Shown: piece after piece, positions 5,433 through 40,457 of the stretch | Layout: every line of letters begins with the position of its first letter | How positions within the stretch are numbered: the stretch's first letter is position 1 | From: Candidatus Saccharimonadota bacterium | Lineage (GTDB): Bacteria; Patescibacteriota; Saccharimonadia; CAILAD01; BJGX01 | DNA: 64,000 bases | Reading direction: 5' to 3' | NCBI GenBank assembly: GCA_016191105.1 | Contig: JACPPH010000004.1 | Location: 65,230 to 129,229, forward strand | The notes under the pieces: generated by a model | Seen by the model: only the letters and a program-made list of their open reading frames with translations | Told to the model about the DNA's origin: nothing | Databases searched by the model: none | Position numbers and translations under genes: made by a program

Positions 5433-5473
5433 CACGGAGTGTCGCCCTGAGCATAGTCGAAGGATCTGTATCT

Positions 5474-5501
5474 AAAAAGACCCTCGTATGAGGGTCTTTT
5501 T
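5474..5501. terminator. Bidirectional rho-independent terminator (aaaaagaccctc-gtat-gagggtcttttt)
   Basis: Perfect stem flanked by A-run and T-run, between convergent rpoD and the GNAT gene. Confidence 0.7.
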
Positions 5502-5549
5502 AGATCGGCAAAACCATAAGTTGCTCGGGATCTTTTTCGCCGGGTACGT

Positions 5550-10185: not shown

Positions 10186-10231
10186 CTCCCAAACAATTTA
10201 ACACGTTAAACTGTTTGGGAGAACGACAACC
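10186..10231. repeat. 17-bp inverted repeat (ctcccaaacaatttaac / gttaaactgtttgggag) followed by aacgacaacc; internal copy of the island junction motif
   Basis: Seen directly. The same tttgggagaacgacaacc string occurs at 13098-13116. Confidence 0.6.
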
Positions 10232-10956: not shown

Positions 10957-11499
10957 CTACCCTGGAATTTGTGGTGGACCGACTACTTCGTCGTAGGTGT
11001 CGGGCGTGAGCCAGGGCTCCACGATGATGACGCCGCCGGTGTTGCGGTGTCGAGCCAAGTTCATGATCGCAACTTCCAGCTGTTCGGTATCACGCATGTA
11101 GCCGATCGAGCTGAACAGGCATGTCACCACATCGAAGAACGACGGGTTGCGGTCAAGGAAGCCCGGGGTACTCAAGCTGAAGGTGAGCATGTCGGCACAG
11201 ATCAAGTTGACCTCTGGCAGGCGCTTGCGAGCCATCTCGAGCTGTTGGGGAGACAGGTCAATGCCGACCACCTTGCTGAACCAGGCGGCGAGATGCTGCA
11301 GGTGCAGGCCAGTGCCGCAGGCCACGTCGAGCAAGCTCATGTCACGAGGGTGCTTGCCGGTCCTTTGCTCGGCGATTTCGAGCACTCGGCTGGCCTCGAC
11401 GCTGTAGTCCTTGAGGCTCTCATAGAGAGTGTCGTACCAGACCGCCGAGTGGGTGTAGGCAGTCATGTCTTCGGTTGTATCCATATTGGTGTTGGTCAT
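10957..11499 (-). CDS. Class I SAM-dependent methyltransferase
   Basis: Motif I LDVACGTGLH. An acidic loop and motif IV-like region follow. High GC. GGAG Shine-Dalgarno. Confidence 0.7.
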   Translation of the reverse strand: MTNTNMDTTEDMTAYTHSAVWYDTLYESLKDYSVEASRVLEIAEQRTGKHPRDMSLLDVACGTGLHLQHLAAWFSKVVGIDLSPQQLEMARKRLPEVNLICADMLTFSLSTPGFLDRNPSFFDVVTCLFSSIGYMRDTEQLEVAIMNLARHRNTGGVIIVEPWLTPDTYDEVVGPPQIPG

Positions 11500-12522: not shown

Positions 12523-13085
12523 GGTATTACTTCGGTGGCGCCAACGGCAGTGGTAAATCTACGTTAGTGTCGAGAATAGTAAAGCAAAAACAAGAGTTCA
12601 TACCTTTTAAAGGCGCCACCGAACTCATGGAGGCCTTGGGCATACCTGGTGATTACGACAAGCTTAGGGCTATGGATCACTCAGTAACTACCGCCGCGTT
12701 TGGAAAGCTGGTTCAGGAGCAATCAAAAAAACACCGAAACCTAATAATCGACGCACACTACATGAACCTTAAACACGGTAAGTTTTATCCGGTTTGGGGC
12801 GACTGGCTTAGCTCGGTTGATGCTCTGGTGTTGGTAGAAGCACCTGCCAGCGCTATATTGGAGCGAATAGAACTCGATCCAAGTAAAGACAGGGCTCTGT
12901 TCCCGGCCGGGGCTACAGAAAAGCAAAAACTGAGCCTACTAAAAGCTTTGATCAGCACCAGCAAAGATGTGTTTTTGGACTGCGCAAACCAATACAACAA
13001 AAAGAGCTTGATTATTGAAAATACCGACCCAACTAAAGCTCTAGATAAGTTTATTAAATTTGATTTTAATCTCCCAAAAACCTAA
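12495..13085 (+). CDS. P-loop NTPase (Walker A GGANGSGKST), function unclear
   Basis: The start is placed at MPEIAEE, so it overlaps the fpg 3' end. The C-terminal codons NLPKT* lie in the shared island left-end motif. Confidence 0.55.
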   Translation: MPEIAEEKVRYYFGGANGSGKSTLVSRIVKQKQEFIPFKGATELMEALGIPGDYDKLRAMDHSVTTAAFGKLVQEQSKKHRNLIIDAHYMNLKHGKFYPVWGDWLSSVDALVLVEAPASAILERIELDPSKDRALFPAGATEKQKLSLLKALISTSKDVFLDCANQYNKKSLIIENTDPTKALDKFIKFDFNLPKT

Positions 13086-13116
13086 ATTATTTTAGATCTT
13101 TGGGAGAACGACAACC
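13071..13116. repeat. Left-end junction motif of island C (ctcccaaaaacctaa ... gatctttgggagaacgacaacc)
   Basis: Homologous to 9651-9730. Inverted repeat ctcccaaa/tttgggag. Confidence 0.55.
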
Positions 13117-15495: not shown

Positions 15496-15747
15496 ATGGC
15501 AACATTCGCAATCGAACGAAAGCAAGAAGAGGGCTTCGGGGTTTCGACCCTGACTGTGCTAAAGAGCGGCAGGCCATGGGCACGCATTACCTCGCTGGTG
15601 AGCGGGGAAGTGTGCAGCGTGTTCATTCCGCCAGACTCCGAGACCATGGTCAACGACAAGCCACTCCGGGAGCAGGAGGCCATTGACCTGGCCAAGGCCT
15701 TCAAGTATCCCCGGCAGAAGAAGCGGAAACAGCCAAAGGCGGCGTAA
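15496..15747 (+). CDS. Hypothetical basic protein, island E
   Basis: GAGGTGA Shine-Dalgarno. A promoter TTGAAT...TGCTACAAT (extended -10) sits ~140 nt upstream. High GC. Confidence 0.35.
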   Translation: MATFAIERKQEEGFGVSTLTVLKSGRPWARITSLVSGEVCSVFIPPDSETMVNDKPLREQEAIDLAKAFKYPRQKKRKQPKAA

Positions 15748-15858: not shown

Positions 15859-16257
15859 TTACTTGTTTGGTTTAGCGGCTGGCTTCTTAGCCGGGGCTTT
15901 TTTGGCAGTTGTTTTAGCTGCCGGTTTCTTAGCGGTTGCTTTTTTGGCGCCAGGCTTGCCTGTCCGCTGTCCAGCGGATTCGGTGCCGAAGGGCTTGGCA
16001 GCAGCGGCATTGTAAGCCTTAGTTAGGCGAGACTTACGGCGGGCAGCTGTGCCCTTATGGAGCACGCCCTTCTTAACGGCTCGGTCTACCTCGGCAATGG
16101 CAGCAATCAGAGCTTTGCTGTCTTTAGGGCTACCGCTCAAGATTTCGGTGCGCACGACCTTGAATTTCTTCTTTACCGCAACCTTAACCGCCACATTGCG
16201 CTGGTTGCGCTTTTTGGCTTGGCGGTCACGTTTGATTGCTGATTTGATAATAGGCAT
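15859..16257 (-). CDS. rpsT: 30S ribosomal protein S20 with a Lys/Ala-rich C-terminal extension
   Basis: N-terminus MPIIKSAIKRDRQAKKRNQRN is typical of S20. Confidence 0.85.
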   Translation of the reverse strand: MPIIKSAIKRDRQAKKRNQRNVAVKVAVKKKFKVVRTEILSGSPKDSKALIAAIAEVDRAVKKGVLHKGTAARRKSRLTKAYNAAAAKPFGTESAGQRTGKPGAKKATAKKPAAKTTAKKAPAKKPAAKPNK

Positions 16258-16729
16258 AGCGCTCAGTATACCGCATTAAGGCCCATCTGTAAAGAACCGC
16301 GTAGTGGCAAGTGCAAGTATAGAATGCTACTAAGCTTTTGTGCGTCTAGTGCTGGCGGGGAGAGGTGGGGCTAGCGCTCAGTTGAACTCCTCCAAACCAC
16401 CGGCAAAAGTCGAACCACACAACTGCCTGCCCTCTTTGCTTCCGTGGATCGGGAGATGACCCAGGGATAGAGGGGTCCGCATATCAGACGGCCAACAAGG
16501 AGGTGATCCATGACTCGCAATCGTGGATCCACCACTGCTGTCATCTCTTCCGCACAGGAGATCGGCTTCTAGGCCAGCGCCTACTGAAGTCGCAAGACAG
16601 TAATACCAACGGGCATAGCCGCTGCGGTGAACGCCCTGACCGCATCCATCGAGCGCTCAACCATCGCCTGCGTTGAGTGCTTATCACGACGAACTCGAGT
16701 GCCGCACCCCAGCTCTCGAACGGGACTAC

Positions 16730-16766
16730 GCCCCCGGCCGTAAGGCCGGGGGCTACCCATTTTTGT
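16730..16766 (+). terminator. Strong rho-independent terminator (gcccccggcc-gtaa-ggccgggggc + ttttt) closing high-GC segment G
   Basis: 10-bp GC stem plus T-run. Confidence 0.65.
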
Positions 16767-16801
16767 TGAAAATTTTTGACACTCTGGCTTATAATAAAAC
16801 C

Positions 16802-17221
16802 ATGAATCTAGAGCTTGCAGCTCAACTACAAAACATCAGCCTAACCGACAAACAGGCTAGAGTTTACATTGCATCTCTATCTTTGGGGCCAAACAGTGCC
16901 CAAAACATTGCCAAAGCAGCAGATGTAAATCGGGCCACCACCTATGTAATCATTGAAGAACTTATGGGTATGGGCCTTGTGACGCAGAGCGAAAAGAGCA
17001 AGCGCACGGTATTTGTAGCCGCACCACCAAGTGCAATCAAACAGTACCTCGAAGATGTCAAAACAGATTTACAGAATAAGATTGACGAACTAGAGAAGCT
17101 ACAGCCACAACTTGAAAAGTTGTCTACCCCAACGGATCTAGAGCACCTAAAGAGACAAATCATCCAGAGTCTTAACCAGGCTGAGATTGAACGGCTGATA
17201 GCAGAACTCCAGAAGTCCTAA
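16802..17221 (+). CDS. TrmB-like wHTH transcriptional regulator
   Basis: N-terminal HTH LTDKQARVYIASLSLGPNSAQNIAKAADVNRATTYVIIEELMGMGLV and a coiled-coil C-terminus. The start is 10 nt after a TATAAT. Confidence 0.6.
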   Translation: MNLELAAQLQNISLTDKQARVYIASLSLGPNSAQNIAKAADVNRATTYVIIEELMGMGLVTQSEKSKRTVFVAAPPSAIKQYLEDVKTDLQNKIDELEKLQPQLEKLSTPTDLEHLKRQIIQSLNQAEIERLIAELQKS

Positions 17222-17325: not shown

Positions 17326-18429
17326 ATGCAAAACGAATTAACTCCCAAACAACAGGTTACAGAGCTAATCCGCCAGGCCAACAACATATTGTTGGTTACG
17401 GGTCGTGAGCCCAATACCGACCAGTTAAGCTCGGTGGTGGCCATGCAGACTGTTTTAACCCGCCTGGGCAAACAAGCCGAGGTGATTATCTCTGATCAAC
17501 TCCCCAAGAGTGCCGAGCTATTCCACACCGACATTATCAGTCGAGATCTAACTGGTATTCGCGACTTTATCATTAAGCTGCGTATGGGTAAAACCGAGGT
17601 AGAAAAGCTTAAATACCAGGTTAGCGACGATAGCCTAGATATTATAATTACGCCTCACAACGGCAATTTTAGTGCCAAGGACGCCACTTTTGACTATGGT
17701 AGTTTTCAGTTCGACCTAGTAATTGCTATGGGTGTTCCGCAAATCAACAAGCTCGATAAGATTTTGGAACAAAACCCAACCATATTCGACGGTTTGCATC
17801 TGTTAAACATCGACTATCATCGCATTAACGAGAACTACGGTAGTGTGAACCTGGTAGATACGGCTGCTAGCTCGACTGCCGAAATGCTTATTTCGGTGTT
17901 CGAATCACTAGGCCAAGGTATGGTTGACGAATACGTGGCTACTGCTATTTTGGCCGGCATTATGAGCGCAACCAGTAATTTTACAGCACCTTCGACCACT
18001 GCCAAAGCTATGACCATGGCGGCTCAAATGGTAGCCGCTGGTGGTAAACAACAAGAGGTGGTGCGCGTGTTAAAGGGTGGTAAAGCCCGCAGTGATAATC
18101 GCGATAACAACGACAAATCAGGTAGCAACAAGTCTGTACAAGAGGCTAAGCCAACAGATATGAATGCCAAGGGCGAGACTAAGCCATTCGCCAATCCGCA
18201 TGCCGATCCACAGCCAGAGACTAAGGACATTCCAAGCGACAAGCCGTTAAAGCAACCCAAAACTGAAGCCGCGCCAGAAGTGCCAGCTGCCCAGCCATCA
18301 GGTGAGGCCAAGACGACTTCGGTTGAACAAAAACCTGAACCTGCCAAGGTGCAAGAACAACAAAATGGTTCAGCTAATCCTCAGGTCGATGAGCACAACG
18401 CCCCAATAGCTATCAGCCCCTTAGCTTAA
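17326..18429 (+). CDS. DHH/DHHA1-family protein (NrnA-like) with degenerate catalytic motifs and a disordered C-terminal tail
   Basis: Overall NrnA-like layout, but the DHH motif reads DYHR. Long Lys/Pro/Glu-rich C-terminus. Confidence 0.55.
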   Translation: MQNELTPKQQVTELIRQANNILLVTGREPNTDQLSSVVAMQTVLTRLGKQAEVIISDQLPKSAELFHTDIISRDLTGIRDFIIKLRMGKTEVEKLKYQVSDDSLDIIITPHNGNFSAKDATFDYGSFQFDLVIAMGVPQINKLDKILEQNPTIFDGLHLLNIDYHRINENYGSVNLVDTAASSTAEMLISVFESLGQGMVDEYVATAILAGIMSATSNFTAPSTTAKAMTMAAQMVAAGGKQQEVVRVLKGGKARSDNRDNNDKSGSNKSVQEAKPTDMNAKGETKPFANPHADPQPETKDIPSDKPLKQPKTEAAPEVPAAQPSGEAKTTSVEQKPEPAKVQEQQNGSANPQVDEHNAPIAISPLA

Positions 18430-18455
18430 TCTGTTCTCCAATCCGACATTCTCCC

Positions 18456-18845
18456 GGCCGTTGCGGCGATCAGCAAGCAAGATAACAAAATACACTCTTG
18501 TTGCGAGAATTTGGTGTCTACCAAACCGCACAGCAACAGGAAAGTATTTTGCTGTAGAGCGCTGCTTTATCGTAAGCACAGGCCAAAGACTTTTGCTATC
18601 TTTTGGTCTTTCAAAAGATAGTTGCCCGAAGGGTAAAACCCTTTGAATCTTGCGCTGTCCGCACCGGACTTCTTTGTAGCGGAAAGTTGCCAAAGCTTCT
18701 GGCATGGGCTCAATCAAGTAGTATTCAGATAGATTTAACTTCGGGTTCTGCGGAACTCTCCGCTGGCACGCGGATCAAACAGTCCTCGCTTGCAGCACTT
18801 CGAGCTGCGCAAAGCTACGTCCAGCTGTTCGAATGCCAGACACGG
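18456..18845 (+). ncRNA. Copy 1 of a repeated structured non-coding element (5' domain plus 3' domain)
   Basis: Conserved against 22580-22968 and 37478-37675. Hairpin gctatcttttg-N6-caaaagatag and hairpin aaggg-taaaa-ccctt. Strand uncertain. Confidence 0.45.
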
Positions 18846-18863
18846 GGGGCAGACCAGATAGCG

Positions 18864-18893
18864 CTTGACAAGAGCCTAACTTTATAGTATACT
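18864..18893 (+). promoter_or_regulatory. Sigma70 promoter TTGACA-N17-TATACT upstream of island F
   Basis: Consensus -35 and good -10 with 17-nt spacing. Confidence 0.5.
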
Positions 18894-19042
18894 CTACAGA
18901 TTCAATCTTCGCTGTTCGCTAGTCAGCGAAAGCGAATTGTTGAACGCTCCTTGCTATTGCCTGCATTCTTGCGGGCAATCTGATGAGAAATTTTGAAATC
19001 TAAATAGTCAGCCCACCACAACTTCGCCCTTAGGAGGCAATC

Positions 19043-19456
19043 ATGGGTATCAACTATGCTGTCAGCGATCTGGGTGATGCCGACGGGTTGGCCGGAGAAC
19101 CGATCGATCAGCGCGCACTCGATCTAGCCGAGGCGCTCGAGATGTTCGTCGGCCTCACACATGATGCGGGTGCGAACTTCACGGTTCAGATCACCCTCGT
19201 CGACGAGACCAAGGTGGTCGTCTACTACACCCACTACCTGGGTTTGGTACCGTCGTCCAACCCGGAGAGGCTGTACAACAGCAGCAACTACGGGTTCTTC
19301 TACGCGTTCGAGAAGGATCCCGAGGATCATCTCGACACCTTCGACCAGTTCCTGTTCACCGTGGGGTGCATCGTCAAGGCGGCGCCCTGGATCTGCACCG
19401 AGCGGGTGCTGCGCCGCATCGTCGCCGGCGACGATGCTGGCCAACCAGCAGCATGA
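19043..19456 (+). CDS. Hypothetical acidic protein F1 (island F)
   Basis: AGGAGG Shine-Dalgarno 6 nt upstream. High GC. Confidence 0.4.
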   Translation: MGINYAVSDLGDADGLAGEPIDQRALDLAEALEMFVGLTHDAGANFTVQITLVDETKVVVYYTHYLGLVPSSNPERLYNSSNYGFFYAFEKDPEDHLDTFDQFLFTVGCIVKAAPWICTERVLRRIVAGDDAGQPAA

Positions 19457-19570
19457 TCATCGTTGTGGTGGAATGTGGGGGCCCTTCGGGGCCCCTGCCA
19501 CCACCAGGCTGACTATTTAGATATTCTCGTTAGCTTGCCCGTAAGGAACTGCAAACGATTGGAGATAATC

Positions 19571-19717
19571 ATGGATAAGAATGCGCAGATCATCAAGCTG
19601 GGGGTCTACTCCGAGCTCAACCTGACCTACGCCACCCGCAACGTCTGGTTCGACGACATCCTCATCGGCCATGTGCCGGCGGAGGATCTCGTGGAGCCCG
19701 AAGAGATCAGCAGCTGA
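19571..19717 (+). CDS. 48-aa hypothetical protein F2
   Basis: GGAG Shine-Dalgarno. Trimmed from the 84-aa table ORF to the internal ATG that has an RBS. Confidence 0.3.
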   Translation: MDKNAQIIKLGVYSELNLTYATRNVWFDDILIGHVPAEDLVEPEEISS

Positions 19718-19795
19718 ACCCCCAACGCAGGCAACAACGAAGCAAGGAGCTCCCGAGAACCGTTCTCCGCCAGCCGGCGGAACGCGGTGCTCGGG

Positions 19796-19849
19796 CCAGC
19801 TCCCGAGTTCTGATCCGCTGTCCAACGGAATTCAGGATTCAGGAGCTGG
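19796..19849 (+). repeat. 54-nt imperfect palindrome (ccagctcc...ggagctgg), copy 1, downstream of F2
   Basis: Near-identical copy at 20341-20394 downstream of F3. Confidence 0.6.
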
Positions 19850-19887
19850 AGTGTTACTCTAGCAAAAGTTCCTTGCAGTATCCGTAA

Positions 19888-19908
19888 CTTGTAGCAGTAT
19901 GCTACAAG
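19888..19908. promoter_or_regulatory. Perfect palindrome cttgtagca-gta-tgctacaag (operator-like) overlapping an extended -10 TGCTACAAG upstream of F3
   Basis: Seen directly. 9-bp arms. Confidence 0.45.
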
Positions 19909-19929
19909 TTCAATCGATTGGAGTGACTC

Positions 19930-20295
19930 ATGGAAGTGAAACACGAGAGAGGCGTCGTCGTGGCGTTCTATCCCGGGAGCGATTCCGGTGTTCTCGGCGT
20001 CTACGACGACAGGCTCATGCTGACCGACGAGGAGATCCTGTTCCATCTCGGTGATGGAACGATGATCAAGATCATCGATGACGACGCTGTCTTCGGTGAG
20101 CCGTTCGGCGATGACCAGAGCCCAGATGCGTCGTTGTTGCGGTGCCCCCGGGTTGGAGAGCTCGTCGTCTTCGAGAGGACCGAGCAGGACGGCGAGAACG
20201 TGAAGGCACGGCCATGGACGTACGGCTTCCTCTACGACAACTTCACGGGGGACATGAGGCCACCCTCCGGGGTGAGCAAGCGGCAGCCTGCCTGA
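19930..20295 (+). CDS. Hypothetical acidic protein F3
   Basis: GGAG Shine-Dalgarno. High GC. Asp/Glu-rich. Confidence 0.4.
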   Translation: MEVKHERGVVVAFYPGSDSGVLGVYDDRLMLTDEEILFHLGDGTMIKIIDDDAVFGEPFGDDQSPDASLLRCPRVGELVVFERTEQDGENVKARPWTYGFLYDNFTGDMRPPSGVSKRQPA

Positions 20296-20340
20296 AGCCC
20301 AACCCCAACAAGCAAGGAGCAACGGGCCGACTAGTTCGGC

Positions 20341-20394
20341 CCAGCTCCCGAGTTCTGATCCGCTATCCAGCGGAATTCAGGATTCAGGAGCTGG
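20341..20394 (+). repeat. 54-nt imperfect palindrome, copy 2
   Basis: See 19796-19849. Confidence 0.6.
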
Positions 20395-20494
20395 AACGCT
20401 TTAGTTCGAGCAAATCGCTCTTTGTTTTTGCAATACCTGGCCACGAGGTTCGTGGCAAGCAACCGACGGAAACAGACTACGAAAGGAAACCGTC

Positions 20495-21106
20495 ATGACA
20501 ACACACCTCTCCGAAGAGGCCCGCAAGATGATCGAGGACTTCACCACCGCCACCGTGAGCGCGTGGATGGATGCTGGCATCATCAAGACCAACTCCTGGG
20601 GCGTATGGCTCGAGGCCGACGACCCCAACGGCGACTTCGAGAACGCCGTCGATCACCGGTTCGGCTTCGACCACCCCGAGGGCAAGCACGACGCCGAGTG
20701 GTACATCGCCAACGCCAAGGGCAAGTGCGAAGCCTGCTTCGCCACCGGCAAGGACAGCCACGAGGCTGTTCGAACCTGGCAAGGCATGCTCAACGGCGTG
20801 GACGGCATCTTCCCTTGGGGCGGCGCGATCATCGACACCGACTATGGAATCTGCGTCGGCGTCAGCGGCTTCCGCGAGGACGAAGATCTGATGGTGGCCC
20901 GTGCCATCCGCAACTTCATCGTCATGCTGTTGGATCGCAAGGGGCAGAACTACATCGACGAGACCCGCGCACGCGGCAAGGACGATGCCCCCGATCCCAG
21001 CGACAGGTTCACCAGGGCCTCGAAGCCCGACGACTACGAGGACTTCGGCGAGGGTCCGATCGGCCGGGAGTTTTCGAAGACCACCCATCCGAACCTGACC
21101 ACCTAG
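20495..21106 (+). CDS. Hypothetical acidic protein F4 (203 aa)
   Basis: AAAGGAAA Shine-Dalgarno. High GC. Followed by the perfect hairpin gagcatccgcc-tca-ggcggatgctc (21129-21153). Confidence 0.45.
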   Translation: MTTHLSEEARKMIEDFTTATVSAWMDAGIIKTNSWGVWLEADDPNGDFENAVDHRFGFDHPEGKHDAEWYIANAKGKCEACFATGKDSHEAVRTWQGMLNGVDGIFPWGGAIIDTDYGICVGVSGFREDEDLMVARAIRNFIVMLLDRKGQNYIDETRARGKDDAPDPSDRFTRASKPDDYEDFGEGPIGREFSKTTHPNLTT

Positions 21107-21236
21107 TCGACAAGCAATGCAAAGAGCCGAGCATCCGCCTCAGGCGGATGCTCACAGCTCTCAAGCTAATCAGTTATGATTGGTTTAAGAGCTGAATCCA
21201 TAAGTCATTCTGAACTTGTTGCAGAATCTCAAAATT

Positions 21237-21530
21237 ATGAGCAAACAATATTACGTATACCTGCTGACTAATAAGACAAATCAAGTTTTGTATACTGGTG
21301 TAACTAGTGATTTAGTCAGACGAGTTAATGAACACAAAAATCATCTCGTTGAGGGGTACTCTGATAAATACAATGTAGATAAACTTGTATACTTTGAAGT
21401 GCTTGACGATCCCGAAAATGCAATTAAAAGGGAGAAGCAAATAAAAAATTGGCATAGAGACTGGAAGCTAAGCCAAATAAAGAAAAGTAATCCCAATATG
21501 AAGGACTTGTATGAGAAGATCCTGAAATAA
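21237..21530 (+). CDS. GIY-YIG nuclease family protein
   Basis: YVYLL...LYTGVT...RRVNEHK motifs. 8 nt upstream of truB. Confidence 0.8.
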   Translation: MSKQYYVYLLTNKTNQVLYTGVTSDLVRRVNEHKNHLVEGYSDKYNVDKLVYFEVLDDPENAIKREKQIKNWHRDWKLSQIKKSNPNMKDLYEKILK

Positions 21531-21537
21531 ATTCAGG

Positions 21538-22185
21538 ATGACAAGAACTATGCAAATAAAAGAAGGCATTCTACTCATAAACAAACCGCGCGGGCGGAGT
21601 AGTTTTAGTATGGTTGCCCAAGTGCGTCGAATTAGTGGTGTCAAACGGGTTGGCCATGCCGGCACCCTCGACCCGGAGGCCGAAGGCCTGCTGATAGTAC
21701 TAGTGGGTAAGGAGTACACCAAAAAGTCAGATAGCTTTCTTAAACTCGATAAAACTTATGAATTCACTATCAGGTTGGGCCAATCTAGCACAACAGGAGA
21801 TAAGGAAGGCGAGAAAACAGCTATCTCGAGCGATAAACCAACCGAAAAGGCCATTTTGAACGTTTTACAGGGCCTGCAGGGCGAGCTTAAGCAGGTTCCG
21901 CCTATTTATAGCGCTATCAAAGTAAACGGCCAGCGGGCCTATAAATTGGCCGCCAAGGGCCAAAAACCGGATTTAGAAGCTCGTGAGATAACCATTTACA
22001 GCTTAGAATTGCTCGATTACACCTATCCACAGCTAAAACTACGTGCCGAGGTTAGTAGTGGTACATATATACGGGTATTAGGTGAAACTATTGGGATGCA
22101 GCTTGGAACCGGGGCCTATTGCACCGAGATTATTCGTACCAAAATTGGCAAATATGACCTGAAAAATGCTATTATCTTAGATTAA
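21538..22185 (+). CDS. truB: tRNA pseudouridine(55) synthase
   Basis: Catalytic GHAGTLDPEAEGLL motif. Size fits TruB. Confidence 0.9.
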   Translation: MTRTMQIKEGILLINKPRGRSSFSMVAQVRRISGVKRVGHAGTLDPEAEGLLIVLVGKEYTKKSDSFLKLDKTYEFTIRLGQSSTTGDKEGEKTAISSDKPTEKAILNVLQGLQGELKQVPPIYSAIKVNGQRAYKLAAKGQKPDLEAREITIYSLELLDYTYPQLKLRAEVSSGTYIRVLGETIGMQLGTGAYCTEIIRTKIGKYDLKNAIILD

Positions 22186-22199
22186 TTTTTCCATCTACC

Positions 22200-22557
22200 T
22201 CCTAGTCATTCCCGCGTAGGCGGGAATCTAAACAATTTCTTGGTACAAGTCATTCCATTCGGGATTAGAAGATTCTATTTTGCGAATCTTCCAAGATCGA
22301 TTCCACTTCTTCATCTGGTTCTCTCTGACAATTGCCTCGTTGATATCGTCATATTGAGCGAACCAAACGAGCTTAGTAACGTTGTACTTTTTGGTGAACC
22401 CAGCTACTAAGTGATTTTTATGCTCGTAAACTCGTTTAGCCAGATTACTGGTAACACCAATATATAGAGTTCCATTGCGATCACTTGCCAATATATAAAC
22501 ATACCCAACTTTCATGAGCAGATATTATACTGGATTCCCGCCTATAAGCGGGAATGA
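22200..22557. mobile_element. Hairpin-flanked mini-element carrying a GIY-YIG gene
   Basis: Near-identical palindromic hairpins (stem ATTCCCGC/GCGGGAAT) at 22203-22224 and 22531-22555 bracket the gene. Confidence 0.4.
22228..22515 (-). CDS. GIY-YIG nuclease family protein (paralog of 21237-21530, ~55% identical)
   Basis: GYVYIL...LYIGVT...KRVYEHK. Confidence 0.8.
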   Translation of the reverse strand: MKVGYVYILASDRNGTLYIGVTSNLAKRVYEHKNHLVAGFTKKYNVTKLVWFAQYDDINEAIVRENQMKKWNRSWKIRKIESSNPEWNDLYQEIV

Positions 22558-22579
22558 CGGGTAGAGGGTGTTGTTCAAC

Positions 22580-22968
22580 GGCCGTTGCTACGATCAGCAA
22601 GCGAAGCCGCCAAGCAACGCTCCTGATTGCGAGAATTCGCTGGCTAGCGAACCGCACAGCAACAGGAAGTTGCGACTGGCTAAGTACTGCTAGATCGTAA
22701 GCACAGGCCAAACGGTTTTGCTATCTTTTGCCAAGACAAAAGATAGTTGCCCGAAGGGTAAAAACCCTTCAAACCTATGGCTTTAAGCAGCCGGCACTTC
22801 TTTGAGACCCAAAGAAGCAAAGCCTCCGACATGGGCTCACACCTGGTGGCTGCTTGCTCGCTCGCAAGCTGAAGCTGCGGAACTCGTCCGCCAGCTGGCG
22901 ACTCAGACAGTCCTCGCTTGCAGCGTTTCGTGCTTAGCATGCTGTGTCCAGCTGTTCGAATGTCGGCA
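22580..22968 (+). ncRNA. Copy 2 of the repeated structured non-coding element
   Basis: Aligns with copies 1 and 3. Carries the ttcgc/gcgaa hairpin where the other copies have tttgg/ccaaa (a compensatory change). Confidence 0.45.
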
Positions 22969-23029
22969 AGAAGGCTAATACCTTTGGGGGCTTGATTAAT
23001 TACCTGAAATCTGCTAATATTTAAAGTCT

Positions 23030-23296
23030 ATGATAGCTCAAACCACCAAGAAAAAGCTCATAAAAGACTACTCAACCCACGGCAAAGACACTGGTTCGGC
23101 CGAGGTTCAGATTGCTCTTTTTACCACCAAGATCAACGAGCTAACCAGCCATCTTAAGACCCACAAAAAAGATAATCACTCCAGGCGCGGATTGCTAGCT
23201 ATGGTAAGCAAACGCCGACGCCTGCTGGATTACTTGCAAAAGAAGAGTCCTGATCGATACTCAAAGCTCATCAAAAAACTGAAACTTCGCCGCTAG
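23030..23296 (+). CDS. rpsO: 30S ribosomal protein S15
   Basis: Typical S15 sequence ([35 protein letters not shown]). Confidence 0.9.
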
Positions 23297-26517: not shown

Positions 26518-28596
26518 ATGAAAGAAGACAAACTAAAAAGCCGTCCGTTGACGGCTCAAGATTTGGGAGCCGCTACACAAGCTAAGGCTAAGAAGCCAAC
26601 AGCGTCTGCCAGCTCACCAAACAAACGAACACAAAATAATAACACTAAACCCGCCCAGAACAGGTCGAACAATTCGAGCAAACCAAGCAACCACCCTCGC
26701 GGCGGTAAGACCCAAAACGACAACCGACCAAACGATGGCGGCAAGCCAAATGGCAACCGACCCAATGGTGGTGGTAAACCACGCTCTGGCGGCGGTGGTG
26801 GTCAACGCCGGCGTTTCGACAAACGTCCTAGTGAGTACATGACCGGTACTTTTAACAAACTCGATCAAAGCAAGACCGCAGCCAAGGCGGTGGGGCTATC
26901 TAGGGCCGATGCCGGTAAGCTCAAAATCATTCCTTTGGGTGGTTTGGGCCAAATCGGCAAGAACGTTATGGCCTTAGAGTACGAAAATGACATGATTGTA
27001 ATGGATCTAGGCTTTATGTTCCCCGGCCCCGAACTACCTGGAATTGATTACATTATTCCTGATATTAGCTACCTCGAGGAGCGCAAGCACAAGATCCGTG
27101 GGCACTTTATTACCCATGCTCACTTAGACCACATAGGCGGCATTCCATTTATGTTGCCCAAGATGCCGGCGCCAATTTATGGTGCCAAATTCACTGTAAA
27201 GTTTATTGAGCGCCAACTAGAGGAGTATAAGCTGCCATTTAAGCCCGAGATGCATATTGTCGATCAAGATAACGGCCAGAAGATCCAAGCTGGTGTCTTT
27301 AGTATTGAATTTGTGCGAGTTAATCACTCCATTCCCGATGCCTGCGCCCTTGTGATCCGCACCCCGGCCGGCACCATCTTTAACACTGGTGACTGGCGGT
27401 TCGACCCCGATCCATACGACGGCAAGCCAACTGATCTAGCCAGGCTCAAGCAGATTGGCGATGAAGGTATATTACTATTGATGTGCGACTCCACCAGCTG
27501 TGAAACCATGGGTCGAAGCCCACGTGAGCAAGAAATTACCGAGACCCTCGATGAGATCTTTGCCCGCAATTACAACAAGCGGGTGATTATATCGTCGTTT
27601 TCATCACAGATTAGCCGTATGCAAATGATTATAGATGCTGTTGCCCGAGCTAAGCGCAAGATGGTGATTACTGGTCGCAGCATGCTCAGCAATGTCGAGC
27701 TAGCTGTAAAGATGGGCTACATTAAGATCCCGGCCAACACCATAATTCGTTCCCAAGACGTCAACAAATATCAAGATGGACAGGTAGCGATCTTGGCTAC
27801 CGGCTCGCAGGGTGAGGAGTTTGCAGTGCTAAACCGCATGGGTCGAGGTGAGGTCAAAGACATTAAGATTCGCAAAAACGATGTCGTGGTCTTGAGTTCG
27901 TCGATTATTCCAGGCAACGAAAAACCAATTTGGGGCATGATCGATAACATTTTGCGTTGGGGGCCGTATGTATACAGCAACGATCTGCGTCGCTTTGACG
28001 ATCTAGATATTATGCATATTTCTGGCCACGCCTACTACGAAGAGGTGGAGCAGATGATTAAGCTGATTCGACCTAAATACTATCTGCCAATTCACGGTGA
28101 GTTGCACCACTTGGTGCACAACAAACAGATCTGTATTCGCAGCAAAGTGGTATCAGAAGACAAGATTTTTGTAATCGAGAACGGCCAAACTCTAGTGGCC
28201 GAAAAGGGTACCGTTAAGTTGGGAGCTAAGATACCCGTGCCAGACGTGCTGATCGATGGCGCAGGTATTGGCGACGTTCAAGAGATTGTACTCAAGGACC
28301 GTATAGCCATGTCCGAAGAAGGCGTGTTTACGGTGATTGCCACGGTGCAACGCAAAACCGGCAAACTGCTCACCAGCCCCGATATTATTAGCCGCGGCTT
28401 CATCTACATGAAAGATAACGAAGAGCTAGTTAACGGTGCCCGCCAGATCGTTAAAAATATCTTCGCGGGTCGACAAGGCAATGTGCCGCCTAGCTCACCA
28501 ATTATCAAAACTCGTATTCGCGACGAAGTCAGCAACTATCTCTATAAGGTAACCAAGCGCAACCCGATTGTATTACCAGTGGTGATAGAGGTTTAA
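26518..28596 (+). CDS. rnj: Ribonuclease J (metallo-beta-lactamase/beta-CASP) with an N-terminal Arg/Gly/Asn-rich disordered extension
   Basis: HxHxDH motif (HAHLDHIGG), beta-CASP region, ~550-aa core after a ~130-aa low-complexity N-terminus. Confidence 0.9.
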   Translation: MKEDKLKSRPLTAQDLGAATQAKAKKPTASASSPNKRTQNNNTKPAQNRSNNSSKPSNHPRGGKTQNDNRPNDGGKPNGNRPNGGGKPRSGGGGGQRRRFDKRPSEYMTGTFNKLDQSKTAAKAVGLSRADAGKLKIIPLGGLGQIGKNVMALEYENDMIVMDLGFMFPGPELPGIDYIIPDISYLEERKHKIRGHFITHAHLDHIGGIPFMLPKMPAPIYGAKFTVKFIERQLEEYKLPFKPEMHIVDQDNGQKIQAGVFSIEFVRVNHSIPDACALVIRTPAGTIFNTGDWRFDPDPYDGKPTDLARLKQIGDEGILLLMCDSTSCETMGRSPREQEITETLDEIFARNYNKRVIISSFSSQISRMQMIIDAVARAKRKMVITGRSMLSNVELAVKMGYIKIPANTIIRSQDVNKYQDGQVAILATGSQGEEFAVLNRMGRGEVKDIKIRKNDVVVLSSSIIPGNEKPIWGMIDNILRWGPYVYSNDLRRFDDLDIMHISGHAYYEEVEQMIKLIRPKYYLPIHGELHHLVHNKQICIRSKVVSEDKIFVIENGQTLVAEKGTVKLGAKIPVPDVLIDGAGIGDVQEIVLKDRIAMSEEGVFTVIATVQRKTGKLLTSPDIISRGFIYMKDNEELVNGARQIVKNIFAGRQGNVPPSSPIIKTRIRDEVSNYLYKVTKRNPIVLPVVIEV

Positions 28597-29276
28597 TCTA
28601 AGGGTCGTACCCTTAGATTAAACCTCGCCTGGGTCAATGGCCAGTTCGTGCTTAATCTTATCGAGCTCATCTCGTGTCGGCTTGTATTCATCCACGAACT
28701 CGAGATAGTCTTGGTTCTCGAAAAGGTTTAAGATCCGATGGGGAAGTAACCAATCTGAGCTACATAGACCGGTATAATATGACAAGCTTGACCACTGCCA
28801 GTGCTGGTAGTCGTTGGGATTAAGATGAATATAGCGCGATATGTGGAGCAAATAACTGTCCGAGCTAATTCTAGAAGCCCGGTAACGTTGTTGAAAAACT
28901 GGCCCAATCCGTTTATAGCGATCGTTGAAATACATACCATAGGCCACACCAACGCTTTTCATTAATAACTTCATGGCATCAACGGTCTGTTGATACAGAA
29001 GGAGATGAAAATGATTAGGCATCAAGCAAAATGCCAAAAGCTCTACGGTGCCAAAGTATGTGGGGTATTGTACGCCAGCCGAATTTTTTGCTGGGGTACT
29101 GCTCAAATAGCGCTTTAGAAGCCCCACAAACACAGCATAATCTCTATCATCATTGAAAATGACTTGACGATTCACCCCACGATTATAGACGTGGTAAAAA
29201 CTCTGAGGAGCGTATTGTTTGTAAATATTCCTACCAGGCATGACGCTCATTCTAAGGGTACGACCCTTAGAATACA
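28591..29276 (-). mobile_element. IS200/IS605-family insertion sequence (tnpA only) with subterminal hairpins at both ends
   Basis: Right end has the palindrome gtttaatctaagggtcgtacccttagattaaac directly after the rnj stop. Left end has the hairpin attctaagggtacgacccttagaat at 29249-29273. Confidence 0.7.
28618..29250 (-). CDS. tnpA: IS200-like Y1 (HUH) transposase TnpA / REP-associated tyrosine transposase-like
   Basis: HFHLLL (HuH) motif, conserved Y in YKRIGPVFQQRY, and N-terminus MPGRNIYKQYAPQSFYHVYNRG. The 310-aa table ORF is trimmed to the start after the left-end hairpin. Confidence 0.75.
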   Translation of the reverse strand: MSVMPGRNIYKQYAPQSFYHVYNRGVNRQVIFNDDRDYAVFVGLLKRYLSSTPAKNSAGVQYPTYFGTVELLAFCLMPNHFHLLLYQQTVDAMKLLMKSVGVAYGMYFNDRYKRIGPVFQQRYRASRISSDSYLLHISRYIHLNPNDYQHWQWSSLSYYTGLCSSDWLLPHRILNLFENQDYLEFVDEYKPTRDELDKIKHELAIDPGEV

Positions 29277-29476
29277 AGCATGATAGTTTTGGTTGAGAAT
29301 AATAGGTGTTCTCTAGCCAATAATTAGCCGGCGCGGCTTGACAAGCCATATTAGTTATGGTAAGTTCCAATTGACAGGAAGGCCAAAATCTAGCCTTCGT
29401 GCCGTAGCTTGCAGGTTGATAGAAGGGAGTTAGCACTGACGAGATAGCGACAAAAGCGAAACGAAAGGACGATCCC

Positions 29477-29680
29477 ATGGAGGTTAACTGGAGAAACACC
29501 AGCGGAAGCCGCCGCGAACACGACAGGGTTGCCAGTCTGAGTACCGACAAGATCGAGGGGCGACTGTCCCGACTTCACAGCCCCGACGGGCGTAGGTCAC
29601 CGTACGGCATTACAACTGCCGACGAAGAAGAGGCGCTCCTGTCTGAGCTCGACGCTCGCAGGTACCCCAACGTCGAGTGA
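29477..29680 (+). CDS. Hypothetical 67-aa protein in small high-GC island J
   Basis: High-GC ORF between the IS and the ABC transporter. Followed by terminator gggcagctc-aacgac-gagctgccc-TTTGCGTTTT (29743-29776). Confidence 0.3.
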   Translation: MEVNWRNTSGSRREHDRVASLSTDKIEGRLSRLHSPDGRRSPYGITTADEEEALLSELDARRYPNVE

Positions 29681-29774
29681 CACAAACCCTCACACCAACA
29701 CCAACCTCAAAAAGCAAAAAAGGCGATCAATGACGATCGCTTGGGCAGCTCAACGACGAGCTGCCCTTTGCGTT

Positions 29775-37477: not shown

Positions 37478-37675
37478 GGCCGTTGCCAACGATCGGCAAG
37501 CGAAGCCATTAAGCAACGCTCTTGTTTGCGAGAATTTGGTTGTTACCAAACCGCGCTAGCCTCCAAGAAGTTTCGACTGGCTGAGCACTGCTAGACTGTA
37601 AGCATAGGCCAGGCGGTTTTGCTATCTTTTGCCAAGACAAAAGATAGTCGCCCGAAAGGGTGAAAGAATTTCAGC
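37478..37675 (+). ncRNA. Copy 3 (5' domain only) of the repeated structured non-coding element
   Basis: Aligns with copies 1 and 2 up to the gctatcttttg...caaaagatag hairpin. Confidence 0.4.
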
Positions 37676-38225
37676 TTTTGGCCGGCAACACGCTTGGGCT
37701 AGTTTTTTGCAGTTTTATGGTGCTGTCTTTAACTACAATGGTTTTGTTATCATCTTTTACATCGACAACCATATTACGATCAATAATATGAGAGGCGTAA
37801 AAAAACTGCCAAATAGAACGTGATTTTAAGTAAAGCTTAGTTGCTGTGAAATCATTAGTGCTTAAGCTAAAGTCGTTAACCCGGCCTAGTTTTTTGCTGC
37901 TTTGGGTAACTACATTGGCACCACACAACAAAAAAGGCTGCTTTATATATGGCTTGAGTCGCACTAAATCCTCGTCTTCGGCTAGATCATTTGCAGATTC
38001 TATAATTAGTTTATTGTTATCGACCAGCTTTATGTCGTGCGGCAATAGGTAGCGTGGCCTAAATTTGGTCTGCAAATGAACTTGTAACATAACGATTTTA
38101 AAGTCATCGGGGTTAACAATGAGTTTTTGCACCCGACCCAGAATACCACCGTCCTGCACGCTAAAAACAGGCAGTTGAATAATATGACTAGCTAAGTGTG
38201 GCATGCTTACAGTATACCTGGCCAA
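37671..38225 (-). CDS. PRC-barrel domain protein (two tandem PRC barrels)
   Basis: Two repeats with PRC-like beta-barrel sequence features (VQDGGILGRVQKLIVNPDD; GANVVTQSSKKLGRVNDFSLS). Confidence 0.55.
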   Translation of the reverse strand: MARYTVSMPHLASHIIQLPVFSVQDGGILGRVQKLIVNPDDFKIVMLQVHLQTKFRPRYLLPHDIKLVDNNKLIIESANDLAEDEDLVRLKPYIKQPFLLCGANVVTQSSKKLGRVNDFSLSTNDFTATKLYLKSRSIWQFFYASHIIDRNMVVDVKDDNKTIVVKDSTIKLQKTSPSVLPAKS

Positions 38226-39918: not shown

Positions 39919-40045
39919 AATTATACCAAACCTGGTGATACAATAAAATTATGGAAATAAGATTGGCCGACAGCTCAGACACAAAACAACTAGGTGAAAT
40001 GCGTTGGGATTTTCAGATCGAAGAGCCAACTGAAACTGTTTCTAG

Positions 40046-40128
40046 TGGTAAAAACCCTTAGGGGCGTATTGTTTGTAAATGTTCCTACCAGGCATGAAGC
40101 CCATTCTAAGGGTACGACCCTTAGAATA
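40046..40128 (-). mobile_element. Solo left-end remnant of the IS200/IS605-like element (includes the first ~17 codons of tnpA and the LE hairpin)
   Basis: ~85% identical to 29181-29276. The reading frame is broken after MGFMPGRNIYKQYAPKGFYH*. Confidence 0.6.
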
Positions 40129-40457
40129 CAAATTGGTTCGGCGCAATTGTAGCGCTTGGATTGGTGTACATACCACCGTACCAAACTACAGGCTACTCAC
40201 CTTGCTGTTGGGGCATAGGGTGATTTAGTATATGACATAGGTGTCTTGTCTCCCTGTTTATTAGTCATTTACAAGTCTGATAGACACCCGTTTTTGTTGC
40301 TAAGCTAGTGAACCCATTACAGTAGTGTTGACCCGGACCTGATTACCAAGTATAATTACATGGTTTTAAAAGCTAATTGACCTTTTTACTAAAGCATAAA
40401 TACAAACAGACTTTAGTGAAGCTCGCAACAAGCGAGGGATCCAAAGAAAGGAAATAA

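Follow-up and report, generated by a model that had tools for sequence, protein, structure and literature searches.

A variable array of small accessory genes with structured spacers at the DHH-truB locus of a Saccharibacteria subclade

What kind of genetic unit places four short, acidic open reading frames (ORFs) in a row between housekeeping genes of a Candidatus Saccharimonadota genome, each followed by elaborate inverted repeats? The question is raised by island F (positions 18865-21194, + strand; all features of the island given below lie on this strand), part of a 64,000-nucleotide stretch of DNA that was analyzed as a whole and is referred to here as the window. A sequence-only reading had described the island as a cassette-like array of four acidic ORFs behind a TTGACA-N17-TATACT promoter. 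The ORFs, F1 to F4, were confirmed, as were their acidity (pI 4.2-4.7) and the near-consensus promoter (18865-18893), which matches 11 of the 12 consensus positions. In the window, the array is flanked by a DHH-family (NrnA-like) gene on one side and by a GIY-YIG gene and truB on the other, and the same flanks are found at related loci. Seven related Saccharibacteria contigs carry such arrays, with 1 to 4 genes each, between the DHH-family gene and truB, and both the gene sets and their order vary from contig to contig at this locus (seven contig families), in keeping with the proposed cassette-like organization. In five more distant relatives, DHH and truB are directly adjacent, with no array in between. 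The differing cassette sets at one locus, together with the empty site in the distant relatives, indicate that the array is variable and derived. The architecture recurs in NCBI, ENA, JGI, and Logan assemblies and is thus not an assembly artefact; the arrays of relatives surveyed here are those at loci reached through protein homologues. Comparison of the loci shows island F to be one allele of an accessory-gene array that is variable, specific to this lineage, and inserted between DHH and truB in one Saccharibacteria subclade. Literature searches found neither such arrays nor integrons described for Patescibacteria.

The cassettes share a common order of parts: a 5′ motif (IR-L), which reads GYTCYTTGY or takes a form particular to the family, a leader hairpin, an SD, an ORF with G/C-ending codons, a complementary 3′ motif, GCAARGRRC (IR-R), a variable hairpin (HP1), and a further hairpin (HP2). 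The 2 motifs are predicted to bracket the cistron as a long-range stem. The IR-L of the F2 cassette, GCTCCTTGCTATTGCCTGC (18946-18964), belongs to a leader also present in contigs L010 and L012 and is complementary to the region past F2 (19727-19750), where the IR-R reads GCAGGCAAC...GCAAGGAGC. The F3 cassette is bracketed by GTTCCTTGC (19868-19876) and GCAAGGAGC (20312-20320), and the F4 cassette by GCTCTTTGT (20417-20425) and GCAAAGAGC (21119-21127). The F4 bracket covaries, with GCTCTTTGT/GCAAAGAGC in the window, GCTCTTTGC/GCAAAGAGC in L010, and GTTCCTTGC/GCAAGGAAC in L002, and the F4 homologue in L143 is bracketed by GCTCCTTGC/GCAAGGAGC. Overall, the predicted bracket stems span 9-25 bp, with covariation, and the hairpins 16-25 bp. 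For the untranslated regions (UTRs) of F1, cognate duplexes reach −31 to −39 kcal/mol, compared with approximately −9 kcal/mol for non-cognate ones. The 3′ motif of one cassette could pair almost equally well with its counterpart at the 5′ side of the following cassette, so that either stem may form. Generic scoring of 5′ UTR × 3′ UTR duplexes on the other GC-rich and the housekeeping genes of the window was too noisy to reveal whether bracketing is a general feature.

The leader hairpins lie between the 5′ motif and the SD, where a stem-loop was found in 8 of the 10 other cassettes tested. The F4 leader hairpin maps to 20439-20456, whereas that of the F2 type is split in the window: its left half, CTTGCGGGCAATCTGATGAGAA (18968-18989), pairs with a right half (19524-19545) on the far side of the F1 unit, and the 2 halves are contiguous in L002, L010, and L012. 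The F3 leader hairpin (19888-19908) had been described as a perfect 21-bp palindrome, resembling an operator and overlapping an extended −10 element. The palindrome is real, but it consists of two 9-bp arms and a 3-nt loop (CTTGTAGCA-GTA-TGCTACAAG) rather than a fully symmetric 21-mer; by our own estimate, approximately 0.24 hairpins of this type would be expected by chance in 64 kb. Given that its position equals that of the leader stem-loop in the other cassettes, an RNA hairpin is a simpler reading than an operator, and a scan for sigma-70-like sites gave none that could correspond to the extended −10 before F3. Within the leader, CTGATGAG looked hammerhead-like but was discarded, since L002 reads CCGATGAG and Rfam gave no match. 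More generally, Rfam searches of the whole window at the gathering threshold, and of positions 18300-23200 by E-value, returned nothing relevant.

Directly after every stop codon stand 2 stable tandem hairpins, HP1 and HP2. HP1 is variable and G+C-rich after F2 (19750-19795), reads GGGCCGA-CTAGT-TCGGCCC after F3 (20324-20342), and forms a perfect 12-bp stem after F4 (21129-21153). HP2 corresponds to the 54-nt repeat reported earlier after F2 and after F3. Both copies (19796-19849 and 20341-20394) are present and agree at 52 of 54 bases; there are exactly 2 of them, with none in 100 shuffles, and they fold as hairpins of −31.9 and −36.5 kcal/mol (z −6.6 and −7.7). A third, diverged copy, absent from the earlier description, follows F4 (21155-21194), with the base CAGCTCT/AGAGCTG produced by a compensatory change. 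The 54-nt element is one hairpin within a larger unit repeated around every gene. In HP2, a 7-bp invariant base (CAGCTCC/GGAGCTG) and a fixed C/A mismatch support a top that varies between 10 and 38 nt and contains 8 covarying pairs. All 17 copies, from eight contigs, end in CAG(C/T)TC(C/T) ... (A/G)GAGCTG, the C/A mismatch being kept in 16 of them and a conserved G.U pair in 15. Across these 17 copies, 98.5% of cells are paired, compared with 81% in shuffles (0/500), double-change cells number 56 against 22 expected, and slid controls pair at 20-50%. Hairpin folding and strong covariation thus substantiate the view that the element is structured. Moreover, one multibranch fold is common to all 14 spacers (z −5.5 to −8.7 for the seven with shuffle controls), and some are mosaic, joining the HP1 of one upstream family to the HP2 of another downstream family.

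With respect to strand, wobbles are more frequent and mismatches rarer in the sense version of HP2 than in the antisense (35 versus 19 G.U pairs in the 17-copy alignment). Assignment by total folding energy was abandoned because it does not separate the strands, the sense version folding more stably in 8 of 14 full spacers and 13 of 17 IR-R-to-HP2 cores; only the HP2 pair-type counts lean towards sense. Identical covariation would also be expected of a site that acts as DNA on the top strand. The sequence-only reading had itself named an objection, namely that the element might be a common terminator found after many unrelated genes. This is not what we observed: in 294 kb of Saccharibacteria sequence, HP2 is confined to the arrays. 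A pattern scan of metagenome DNA for IR-R plus HP2 gave 120 matches, all of them chance occurrences in high-GC coding DNA.

How is such an array transcribed? A TTGACA-17-TAnnnT promoter heads the arrays in seven other contigs, including L002, L008, L010, L011, and L012 as well as the lone L143 cassette, although the number of promoter-like sites in the region is at chance level (2 found, 1.5 expected). No sigma-70-like site was detected ahead of F2, F3, or F4 or in any internal spacer of the window. Neither HP1 nor any HP2 is followed by a T-run, so that the combination of G+C-rich hairpin and U-tract typical of intrinsic terminators is lacking, whereas canonical U-tract terminators are used elsewhere in the window (5470-5527, 46699-46770, and 57081-57139); the earlier statement that the 54-nt palindrome differs from a classic terminator therefore holds. 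In L008, the gap between the last cassette and truB consists of IR-R, HP1, and HP2 only (115 nt), and truB starts 2 nt after HP2. We consider it unlikely that each cassette is a transcription unit of its own, with HP1 and HP2 as atypical (U-less or factor-dependent) terminators and a non-consensus promoter in each spacer. Such units would fit the 2 tandem hairpins after every stop codon, the neighboring GC3-rich genes of L148, each with its own TTGAT(T/A)-type promoter, and the lone cassette of L143, which ends in the same kind of hairpins; they are difficult to reconcile with the missing T-runs in a genome that has classical terminators, with internal spacers devoid of a promoter-like hexamer pair, with the mere 10-25 nt from HP2 to the next 5′ motif, and with the start of truB in L008. 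In that contig, the HP2 loop contains TACAAT, a possible internal −10, and internal promoters may accordingly exist in places.

F1 departs from the other cassettes in that its flanking repeats are its own. Its unit is a 534-bp insert (18990-19523) with inverted ends, ATCTAAATAGTCAGCC (18998-19013) and GGCTGACTATTTAGAT (19507-19522), that form a perfect 16-nt repeat. The insert falls exactly within the loop of the leader hairpin of the F2 type, with no target duplication at the insertion points (18989/18990 and 19523/19524). The same ends flank F1 homologues at other array positions in L002, L011, L012, and L014, and those in the window show a compensatory A>G / T>C change; the unit occupies four different array contexts, and its inverted ends measure 16-25 nt. 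There is one copy of the unit per contig. Past the gene (19043-19456; 137 aa, pI 4.25, GC3 0.79) lies a 3′ hairpin, GTTGTGGTGG...CCACCACC (19462-19505); CCACCACAAC in the F1 5′ UTR (19014-19022) is complementary to the 5′ arm of this hairpin as well. A 22-mer of the F1 end matching three IMG/VR contigs was dismissed as a coincidence, as it encodes there an integrase C-terminus (WWADYLD). Correia/NEMIS elements of Neisseria and MITEs are small, non-autonomous elements bounded by terminal inverted repeats and transcribed into RNase III-sensitive hairpins. The F1 unit resembles them in having inverted ends without a transposase and a context that varies by genome, once inside the hairpin of another element; it differs from them in carrying a conserved 137-aa gene, in being single-copy per genome as far as seen and free of target duplication, and in always lying within an array.

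The varying contexts of F1 and the shape of HP2 bring to mind integrons. As in attC arrays, a single promoter heads mostly one-gene units, each unit has an imperfect palindrome in which the ends are conserved, the center varies, and one base is always unpaired, and content and order vary among related genomes. HP2, the brackets, or both could accordingly fold in single-stranded DNA as sites for a recombinase or an HUH/Y1 enzyme that moves the cassettes, a possibility which the F1 unit in its several contexts would suit, and an IS200-like Y1 transposase gene (28618-29240) and a Xer-like recombinase gene (61095-62006) do lie 7.5 kb and 40 kb away, respectively. We nevertheless regard this account, the main rival of the polycistronic reading given below, as doubtful. 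No IntI or attI accompanies the array, the arrays are without any flanking integrase, and the Xer-like protein is the sole tyrosine recombinase in the window; HP2 ends in CAGCTCC/GGAGCTG rather than in RYYYAAC/GTTRRRY boxes. Its wobbles and conserved G.U pairs favor the sense, transcribed strand, whereas attC sites act via the bottom strand, and the cassette junctions are mosaic instead of falling at one fixed point. A long 5′ leader is moreover conserved in every unit, which also has a second hairpin and a 5′/3′ bracket that covaries, and no target duplication is seen where F1 is inserted. A relationship of the kind seen between REP/BIME elements and RAYT (Y1) proteins is countered by the restriction of HP2 to the arrays within the 294 kb and by the Y1_Tnp gene being flanked by its own, unrelated hairpins (TCTAAGGGT...ACCCTTAGA). 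A further and decidedly unlikely proposal is that the array constitutes a platform for cassette capture and shuffling in CPR bacteria, with an origin independent of integrons, in which units with a covarying bracket and a strand-marked HP2 would be moved by a putative enzyme acting on folded single strands. The uniform use of G/C-ending codons would then have been selected for in the cargo, perhaps because it makes for very stable stored messages.

Codon usage sets the array genes apart. Their GC3 is approximately 0.80 (0.79-0.88), compared with 0.49 in the neighboring genes and in the genome, and their codon choice is like that of high-GC bacteria (ATC 27/27, TTC 96%, AAG 95%). The spacers, with a GC of 0.52, do not share this bias. 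The dN/dS of the array genes, 0.36-0.6 compared with approximately 0.1 for truB and DHH, indicates that they are real and fast-evolving; for F1, the range is 0.36-0.58. A recent import from a high-GC donor, be it an actinobacterial host or its phages, with the cassettes encoding anti-restriction or DNA-mimic proteins, would explain the GC3, the codon choice, the fast evolution, and the acidity of four proteins out of four. The comparative evidence makes such an import highly improbable. Searches of 5.8e9 and 1.84e9 proteins recovered no homologues outside Saccharibacteria-like contexts, and IMG/VR, INPHARED, and BFVD yielded no phage or viral relatives of the F proteins. The cassettes have diverged at least as much as the flanking housekeeping genes, the synonymous divergence of F1 between L002 and L011 even exceeding that of the adjacent DHH gene, and the GC3 excess is kept across deep divergence with no donor found. 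In addition, spacers, promoter, and SDs look native and are common to several genomes. The earlier suggestion of independently acquired cassettes is, if recent foreign import is meant, not supported. An argument against foreign origin from GC1 and GC2 was dropped because the values (0.63 and 0.41) fit a donor of approximately 60% GC. Remoter still is the idea that the codons of the array suit a message used in the high-GC actinobacterial host.

None of the four proteins matches a Pfam, PHROG, PADLOC, or NCBIfam family. The earlier remark that recognizable domains are absent does not extend to the fold of F4. F4 (20495-21106; 203 aa, pI 4.66, GC3 0.88) shares the fold of the HbpS/GlcG/DUF336/UPF0303 superfamily (PF03928) and, when aligned to Ybr137w, its GG-x-V...(V/I)SG-x-x-x-(E/D)ED motif, while staying below every Pfam and NCBIfam threshold; it has no PF03928 match, and P0040, a distant family member, scores 14 bits where 25 would be required. 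Features of its own are an FPWGGAV motif specific to the family of F4 and an additional C-terminal tail that is acidic and disordered. F4 is best explained as a divergent HbpS/GlcG-type protein, a putative binder of a small ligand. With this fold, F4 is not a DNA mimic of the Ocr or ArdA kind, and for all four proteins the searches gave neither a family match nor a phage relative. A pI of 4.2-4.7 is common among cytoplasmic proteins and not specific to mimics. F1 has five homologues (59-71% identity), all in arrays adjoining truB, but no family match and no confident structural model (pLDDT 45). F3 (19930-20295; 121 aa, pI 4.41, GC3 0.80) is an orphan, and neither F1 nor F3 has sequence relatives in the PDB. 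F2 (19571-19717; 48 aa, pI 4.2, GC3 0.88) may descend by internal deletion from a relative of the 119- to 134-aa proteins encoded by cassettes of L012 and L014: it shares a homologous leader and SD region with the 119-aa cassette of L012, whereas the similarity at the protein level is weak (E 0.004).

The account that we put forward, and to which we give an even chance, is that of a polycistronic accessory operon whose spacers would act in RNA, in processing, stability, and insulation, and would in addition supply homology for cassette shuffling. A single long transcript would start at the near-consensus promoter, cross the entire array, and continue in the direction of truB, with HP1 and HP2, which are without U-tracts, letting transcription pass; the absence of internal sigma-70-like sites, the use of U-tract terminators elsewhere, and the 115-nt spacer of L008 support a single transcript. 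Bracket stems and hairpins would insulate each cistron within the RNA, and the double-stranded stems are candidate processing sites that may also protect 5′ and 3′ ends against RNase J and PNPase, both encoded just downstream. Small proteins that evolve rapidly would in this way be made from separate messages of long life, and the invariant pieces of the spacers (the bracket motifs and the HP2 base) could serve as short homologies for exchanging and reordering cassettes between genomes. The GC3 of approximately 0.8 in the ORFs, without a counterpart in the spacers, is left unexplained by this polycistronic RNA model.

Intercistronic stem-loops that process or stabilize polycistronic mRNA are known from the RNase III sites of the phage T7 early operon and from REP/BIME stabilizers such as that of malE-malF. 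The arrays resemble these systems in having stable hairpins without U-tracts between the cistrons of what would be a strongly transcribed operon, in an orientation fixed relative to the genes, and, as in RNase III operons, predicted long stems bracket single cistrons or lie between cistrons. They differ in that a conserved three-part module of bracket, HP1, and HP2 travels with mobile, variable genes and is restricted to the arrays instead of being spread genome-wide.

The tiny genomes of Saccharibacteria are those of obligate epibionts, and, to our knowledge, accessory-gene variation among them is poorly understood. The DHH-truB locus provides a defined hotspot at which small, rapidly evolving and probably strongly expressed proteins are swapped between lineages. 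F4 adds to the HbpS/GlcG superfamily a divergent and apparently Saccharibacteria-specific branch. The GC3 bias, limited to one gene class in a genome of 48% GC and without a donor, is a clean, testable anomaly that bears on how codon usage is maintained. Finally, the structured spacer, with its clear covariation, is a concrete candidate either for a non-integron cassette system or for a new element that governs the processing or stability of RNA.

Island F, in a Candidatus Saccharibacteria bacterium (locus tags HYX70_02275-02290; GC 48%), is a derived array of gene cassettes that varies between genomes and is headed by a strong, conserved promoter. The TTGACA-17-TATACT promoter lies at 18865-18893 (11/12 matches), and the four ORFs, F1 (137 aa), F2 (48 aa), F3 (121 aa) and F4 (203 aa), were found where the sequence-only reading had placed them, all encoding acidic proteins (pI 4.2-4.7) as it had stated. 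Upstream are genes for a TrmB-like regulator (16673-17221) and a DHH-family protein (17326-18429); downstream are a small GIY-YIG gene (21216-21530, plus strand), truB (21538-22185) and a second small GIY-YIG gene (22228-22515, minus strand). Synteny with two related contigs, L011 and L012, gives the order after truB as rpsO, pnp, a UDG gene and RNase J. The nuclease genes bracketing truB are stand-alone and low in GC (33-38%), another such gene lies just upstream of the array on contig L010 (38-301), and these small GIY-YIG nucleases might contribute to turnover at the hotspot. A structured repeat of about 395 nt is present in two full copies and a partial one (18455-18850, 22579-22975 and 37489-37700). 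One copy separates the DHH gene from the island promoter, and rpsO has another copy upstream of it; the repeat includes several hairpins (z -3.7), has no Rfam match and is not present in related loci.

Searches identified five homologues each of F4 (49-59% identity) and F1 (59-71%) and none of F3, and all homologues with readable context lie between a DHH-family gene and truB. The array reads F1, F2, F3, F4 in the window; 83-aa, ICMT-like methyltransferase, F4, F1 in L002; 88-aa, F4 in L008; 133-aa, 195-aa, F4 in L010; 84-aa, ICMT-like, F1 in L011; 87-aa, 119-aa, F1 in L012; and three other genes followed by F1 in L014. In five more distant Saccharibacteria (L016-L020), the DHH gene and truB are adjacent, without an array, indicating that the array is a derived insertion. 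In L016-L019, the reading frame switches at an A9 tract towards the 3' end of the DHH-family gene (one frame reads GSKKKI*, another runs on as KKDLIWSKG...); this may reflect programmed frameshifting or else the same homopolymer error in all four assemblies. The first cassette of four arrays encodes an 83-88-aa protein (L002 8749-9000, L008 9501-9767, L011 8803-9057, L012 1913-2176) that is absent from the window. Its helix-turn-helix likeness is faint (HTH_67, E 0.019), and it might regulate the array.

The 54-nt element was confirmed in two copies (19796-19849 and 20341-20394; no further matches, 0 in 100 shuffles), the two forming long hairpins (z -6.6 and -7.7) with no T-run behind them. 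Read beside the spacers of related loci, it is part of a larger repeated module: after every stop codon come, in fixed order, the 3' bracket motif IR-R (GCAAGGAGC or a near variant), a G+C-rich hairpin of variable sequence (HP1), the hairpin of the 54-nt element (HP2; base CAGCTCC/GGAGCTG, variable top), 10-25 nt often including AATCTAGC, the 5' bracket motif IR-L (GYTCYTTGY, complement of IR-R) and a leader hairpin, then the SD and start codon. MFE folds gave the same multibranch structure in 14/14 spacers, with z -5.5 to -8.7 in the seven folded with shuffle controls. A third, diverged HP2 lies 3' of F4 (21155-21194), its base, CAGCTCT/AGAGCTG, carrying a compensatory change. Across 17 copies from eight contig families, the consensus HP2 hairpin has 16 pairs, with 98.5% of alignment cells paired (81% when shuffled; 0/500) and 56 cells changed on both sides (22 expected; 0/500), and the score collapses once the partners are slid. 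Fixed features are a C facing an A above the 7-bp base and, three positions further in, a G.U (15/17 copies), with a frequent U.G two positions beyond (10/17). The sense strand has 35 G.U cells, which would become A/C mismatches on the other strand, whereas the antisense strand would gain only about 19 wobbles; the HP2 structure thus favours the transcribed strand. Total folding energies did not decide between the strands. A TCCGCT-RTMCAR-CGGA sub-hairpin occurs at the HP2 tip (window 19814-19829 and 20359-20374; L008 9826-9843), in the HP1s of L011 and L012, and a single time in the presumed rpsT region of the window (15963-15978). A distinct hairpin family with conserved base and variable top (CTCCCAAA...TTTGGGAG then AACGACAACC) is found at 10186-10231 and 13071-13116, near other GC-rich stretches.

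Each gene has both a covarying hairpin and a bracket around it, and IR-L and IR-R change together. Around F4 they read GCTCTTTGT / GCAAAGAGC in the window, GCTCTTTGC / GCAAAGAGC in L010, GTTCCTTGC / GCAAGGAAC in L002 and GTTCCTTGC / GCAAGGGAC in L008. F2-type cassettes have longer complementarity (GCTCCTTGCTATTGCCTGC against GCAGGCAAC...GCAAGGAGC), the 83-88-aa family is bracketed by GGCTCTC / GAGAGCC, and F1 by a 25-nt pair (ATCTAAATARTCAGCC-CACCACAAC against GTTGTGGTGG ... GGCTGAYTRTTTAGAT) with an A>G / T>C double change in the window and cognate duplex energies of -31 to -39 kcal/mol, compared with about -9 for non-cognate partners. Within an array, IR-R has a second possible partner in the IR-L of the following cassette; the resulting stem, an alternative to the one around the ORF, would enclose HP1 and HP2 and is that shown in the MFE folds. 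One distant F4 homologue stands alone, as a single cassette upstream of gltX in a different genome (L143) and at another locus, with the same TTGACA-17-TATAAT promoter, GCTCCTTGC in its leader, GCAAGGAGC downstream of the stop codon and a pair of hairpins. Since it keeps the bracket, the bracket belongs to the cassette and not to the array.

The 9+3+9 palindrome (19888-19908), previously described as operator-like and overlapping an extended -10, lies between IR-L and the SD of F3, and the scan found no promoter-like hexamers there. With a stem-loop at the equivalent position in 8/10 other cassettes tested, the economical reading is that it would be the F3 leader hairpin; it may instead be an operator. 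The scan likewise found no sigma-70-like site before F2, F3 or F4. No U-tract was ever seen at HP1 or HP2, neither of which passes as an intrinsic terminator, and classical U-tract terminators end other genes of the same genome (5470-5527, 46699-46770 and 57081-57139). In L008, the 115 nt from the last cassette to truB comprise IR-R, HP1 and HP2 and nothing else. The lack of internal promoters and U-tracts, together with this spacer content, suggests read-through from the array promoter. However, TACAAT in the HP2 loop of that L008 spacer could be a -10, and the cassettes might be separate transcription units, which we regard as quite improbable.

At least one cassette has moved. The F2 cassette leader in the window is broken exactly in its hairpin loop (CTTGCGGGCAATCTGATGAGAA | TTCTCGTTAGCTTGCCCG) by a unit of 534 bp (18990-19523) that holds F1 and has perfect inverted ends of 16 nt, and the F2-type leader hairpin is unbroken in L002, L010 and L012. 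In four other genomes, the F1 unit is last in the array, adjoining truB. The F1 unit is the clearest indication that single cassettes move. Furthermore, the spacers are mosaic: in L008, an F4-typical HP2 follows an HP1 of the kind seen in the 83-88-aa family, and near-identical HP1s precede F1 in L011 and L012 though the upstream genes differ, which points to exchange via short conserved segments rather than one fixed crossover point. The leader and SD of F2 recur in the 119-aa L012 cassette, and its termini are both weakly similar to that family; F2 may be an internally deleted copy. A 22-mer of the F1 inverted end, ATCTAAATARTCAGCCCACCAC, is exact in three IMG/VR contigs (L144 674-695, L145 41-62, L146 1185-1206), where, read in reverse, it codes for WWADYLD at the C-terminus of an integrase-like ORF; the match is probably coincidence.

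HP2 and the bracket could be recombination sites, a reading we consider unlikely. Function of the spacers at the RNA level, to which we give about an even chance, is inferred from the better sense-strand pairing, the fixed orientation, the lack of terminator tails and internal promoters, and the RNA-turnover gene neighbourhood; RNA and DNA roles are not exclusive. The array resembles an integron array in outline, but the defining features (IntI/attI, R boxes) are missing, and an RNase III/REP-punctuated operon in its spacers, but HP2 does not behave as a REP/RAYT element. An IS200-like Y1 transposase ORF (28618 to about 29240, minus strand, within 28588-29275) is flanked by TCTAAGGGT-NNN-ACCCTTAGA hairpins, and a third copy of the hairpin is found at 40045-40131 together with 87 nt of flanking repeat; this is apparently an element of the IS200/RAYT type whose palindromes are its own and have no relation to HP2. 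No description of such an array was found in the searchable literature.

The earlier statement that F1-F4 lack recognisable domains holds for Pfam, PHROG, NCBIfam and PADLOC, which gave no match, but not for F4, a divergent branch of the PF03928 superfamily. This assignment follows from the F4 family profile (31 sequences), whose best PDB sequence hits, Ybr137w and 2a2l, are not significant (E 0.6-1) and align on GGAV...(V/I)SG-x-K-x-EED, and from a below-threshold match of one distant member to PF03928. The F4 model (pLDDT 71, pTM 0.66) has an acidic disordered tail from residue 168 and yielded no viral structural match; that of F1 was too poor for use. About 40 representatives of the F4 branch are known, all from uncultured sources, the two named to organism (query cluster HYX70; JNJ66) being Saccharibacteria. 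By eye, no N-terminal hydrophobic segment was seen in F1-F4. No homologues were found outside Saccharibacteria-like contigs, nor in IMG/VR or sequenced phages, and the suggestion of a foreign anti-restriction island appears very unlikely.

Array genes (n=23, eight contigs) have GC1/GC2/GC3 of 0.63/0.41/0.80, compared with 0.57/0.39/0.49 in flanking housekeeping genes (n=27), and spacers have a GC of 0.52. In the window cassettes, Ile is ATC in 27/27 codons, Phe TTC in 96%, Lys AAG in 95% and Glu GAG in 84%, third bases being C 54, G 30, T 10 and A 6%. The S15 genes beside arrays have GC3 of 0.49-0.54, so the excess is not the kind that goes with high expression. Members of the F4 family located elsewhere retain it at protein identities down to 37-45% (L143 0.85 against about 0.5; L147 0.74 against 0.32-0.49; L148 0.90 against 0.63-0.69), a very distant member showing only a mild excess. 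Synonymous differences are saturated in truB and DHH (pS 0.66-0.86); F1 and F4 have pS of 0.35-0.52, about the value we calculated from third-base frequencies for saturated sites at such skew. Between the closely related L002 and L011, F1 has diverged further (pS 0.34) than DHH has (0.20), and the cassettes are thus not simply young imports. The dN/dS of cassette genes, 0.36-0.6 against about 0.1 in neighbours, indicates real, fast-evolving proteins. Elsewhere in the window are a GC-rich mini-gene (29478-29681, 67 aa, within 29338-29771) with a TTGACA-17-TAAGTT promoter, the AATCTAGC leader motif and tandem 3' hairpins, and further GC3-rich ORFs at 10957-11499 (minus strand; a methyltransferase) and 15496-15747, so this class is not confined to island F. 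The G/C third-position bias of the array genes looks maintained and could raise the importance of the array.
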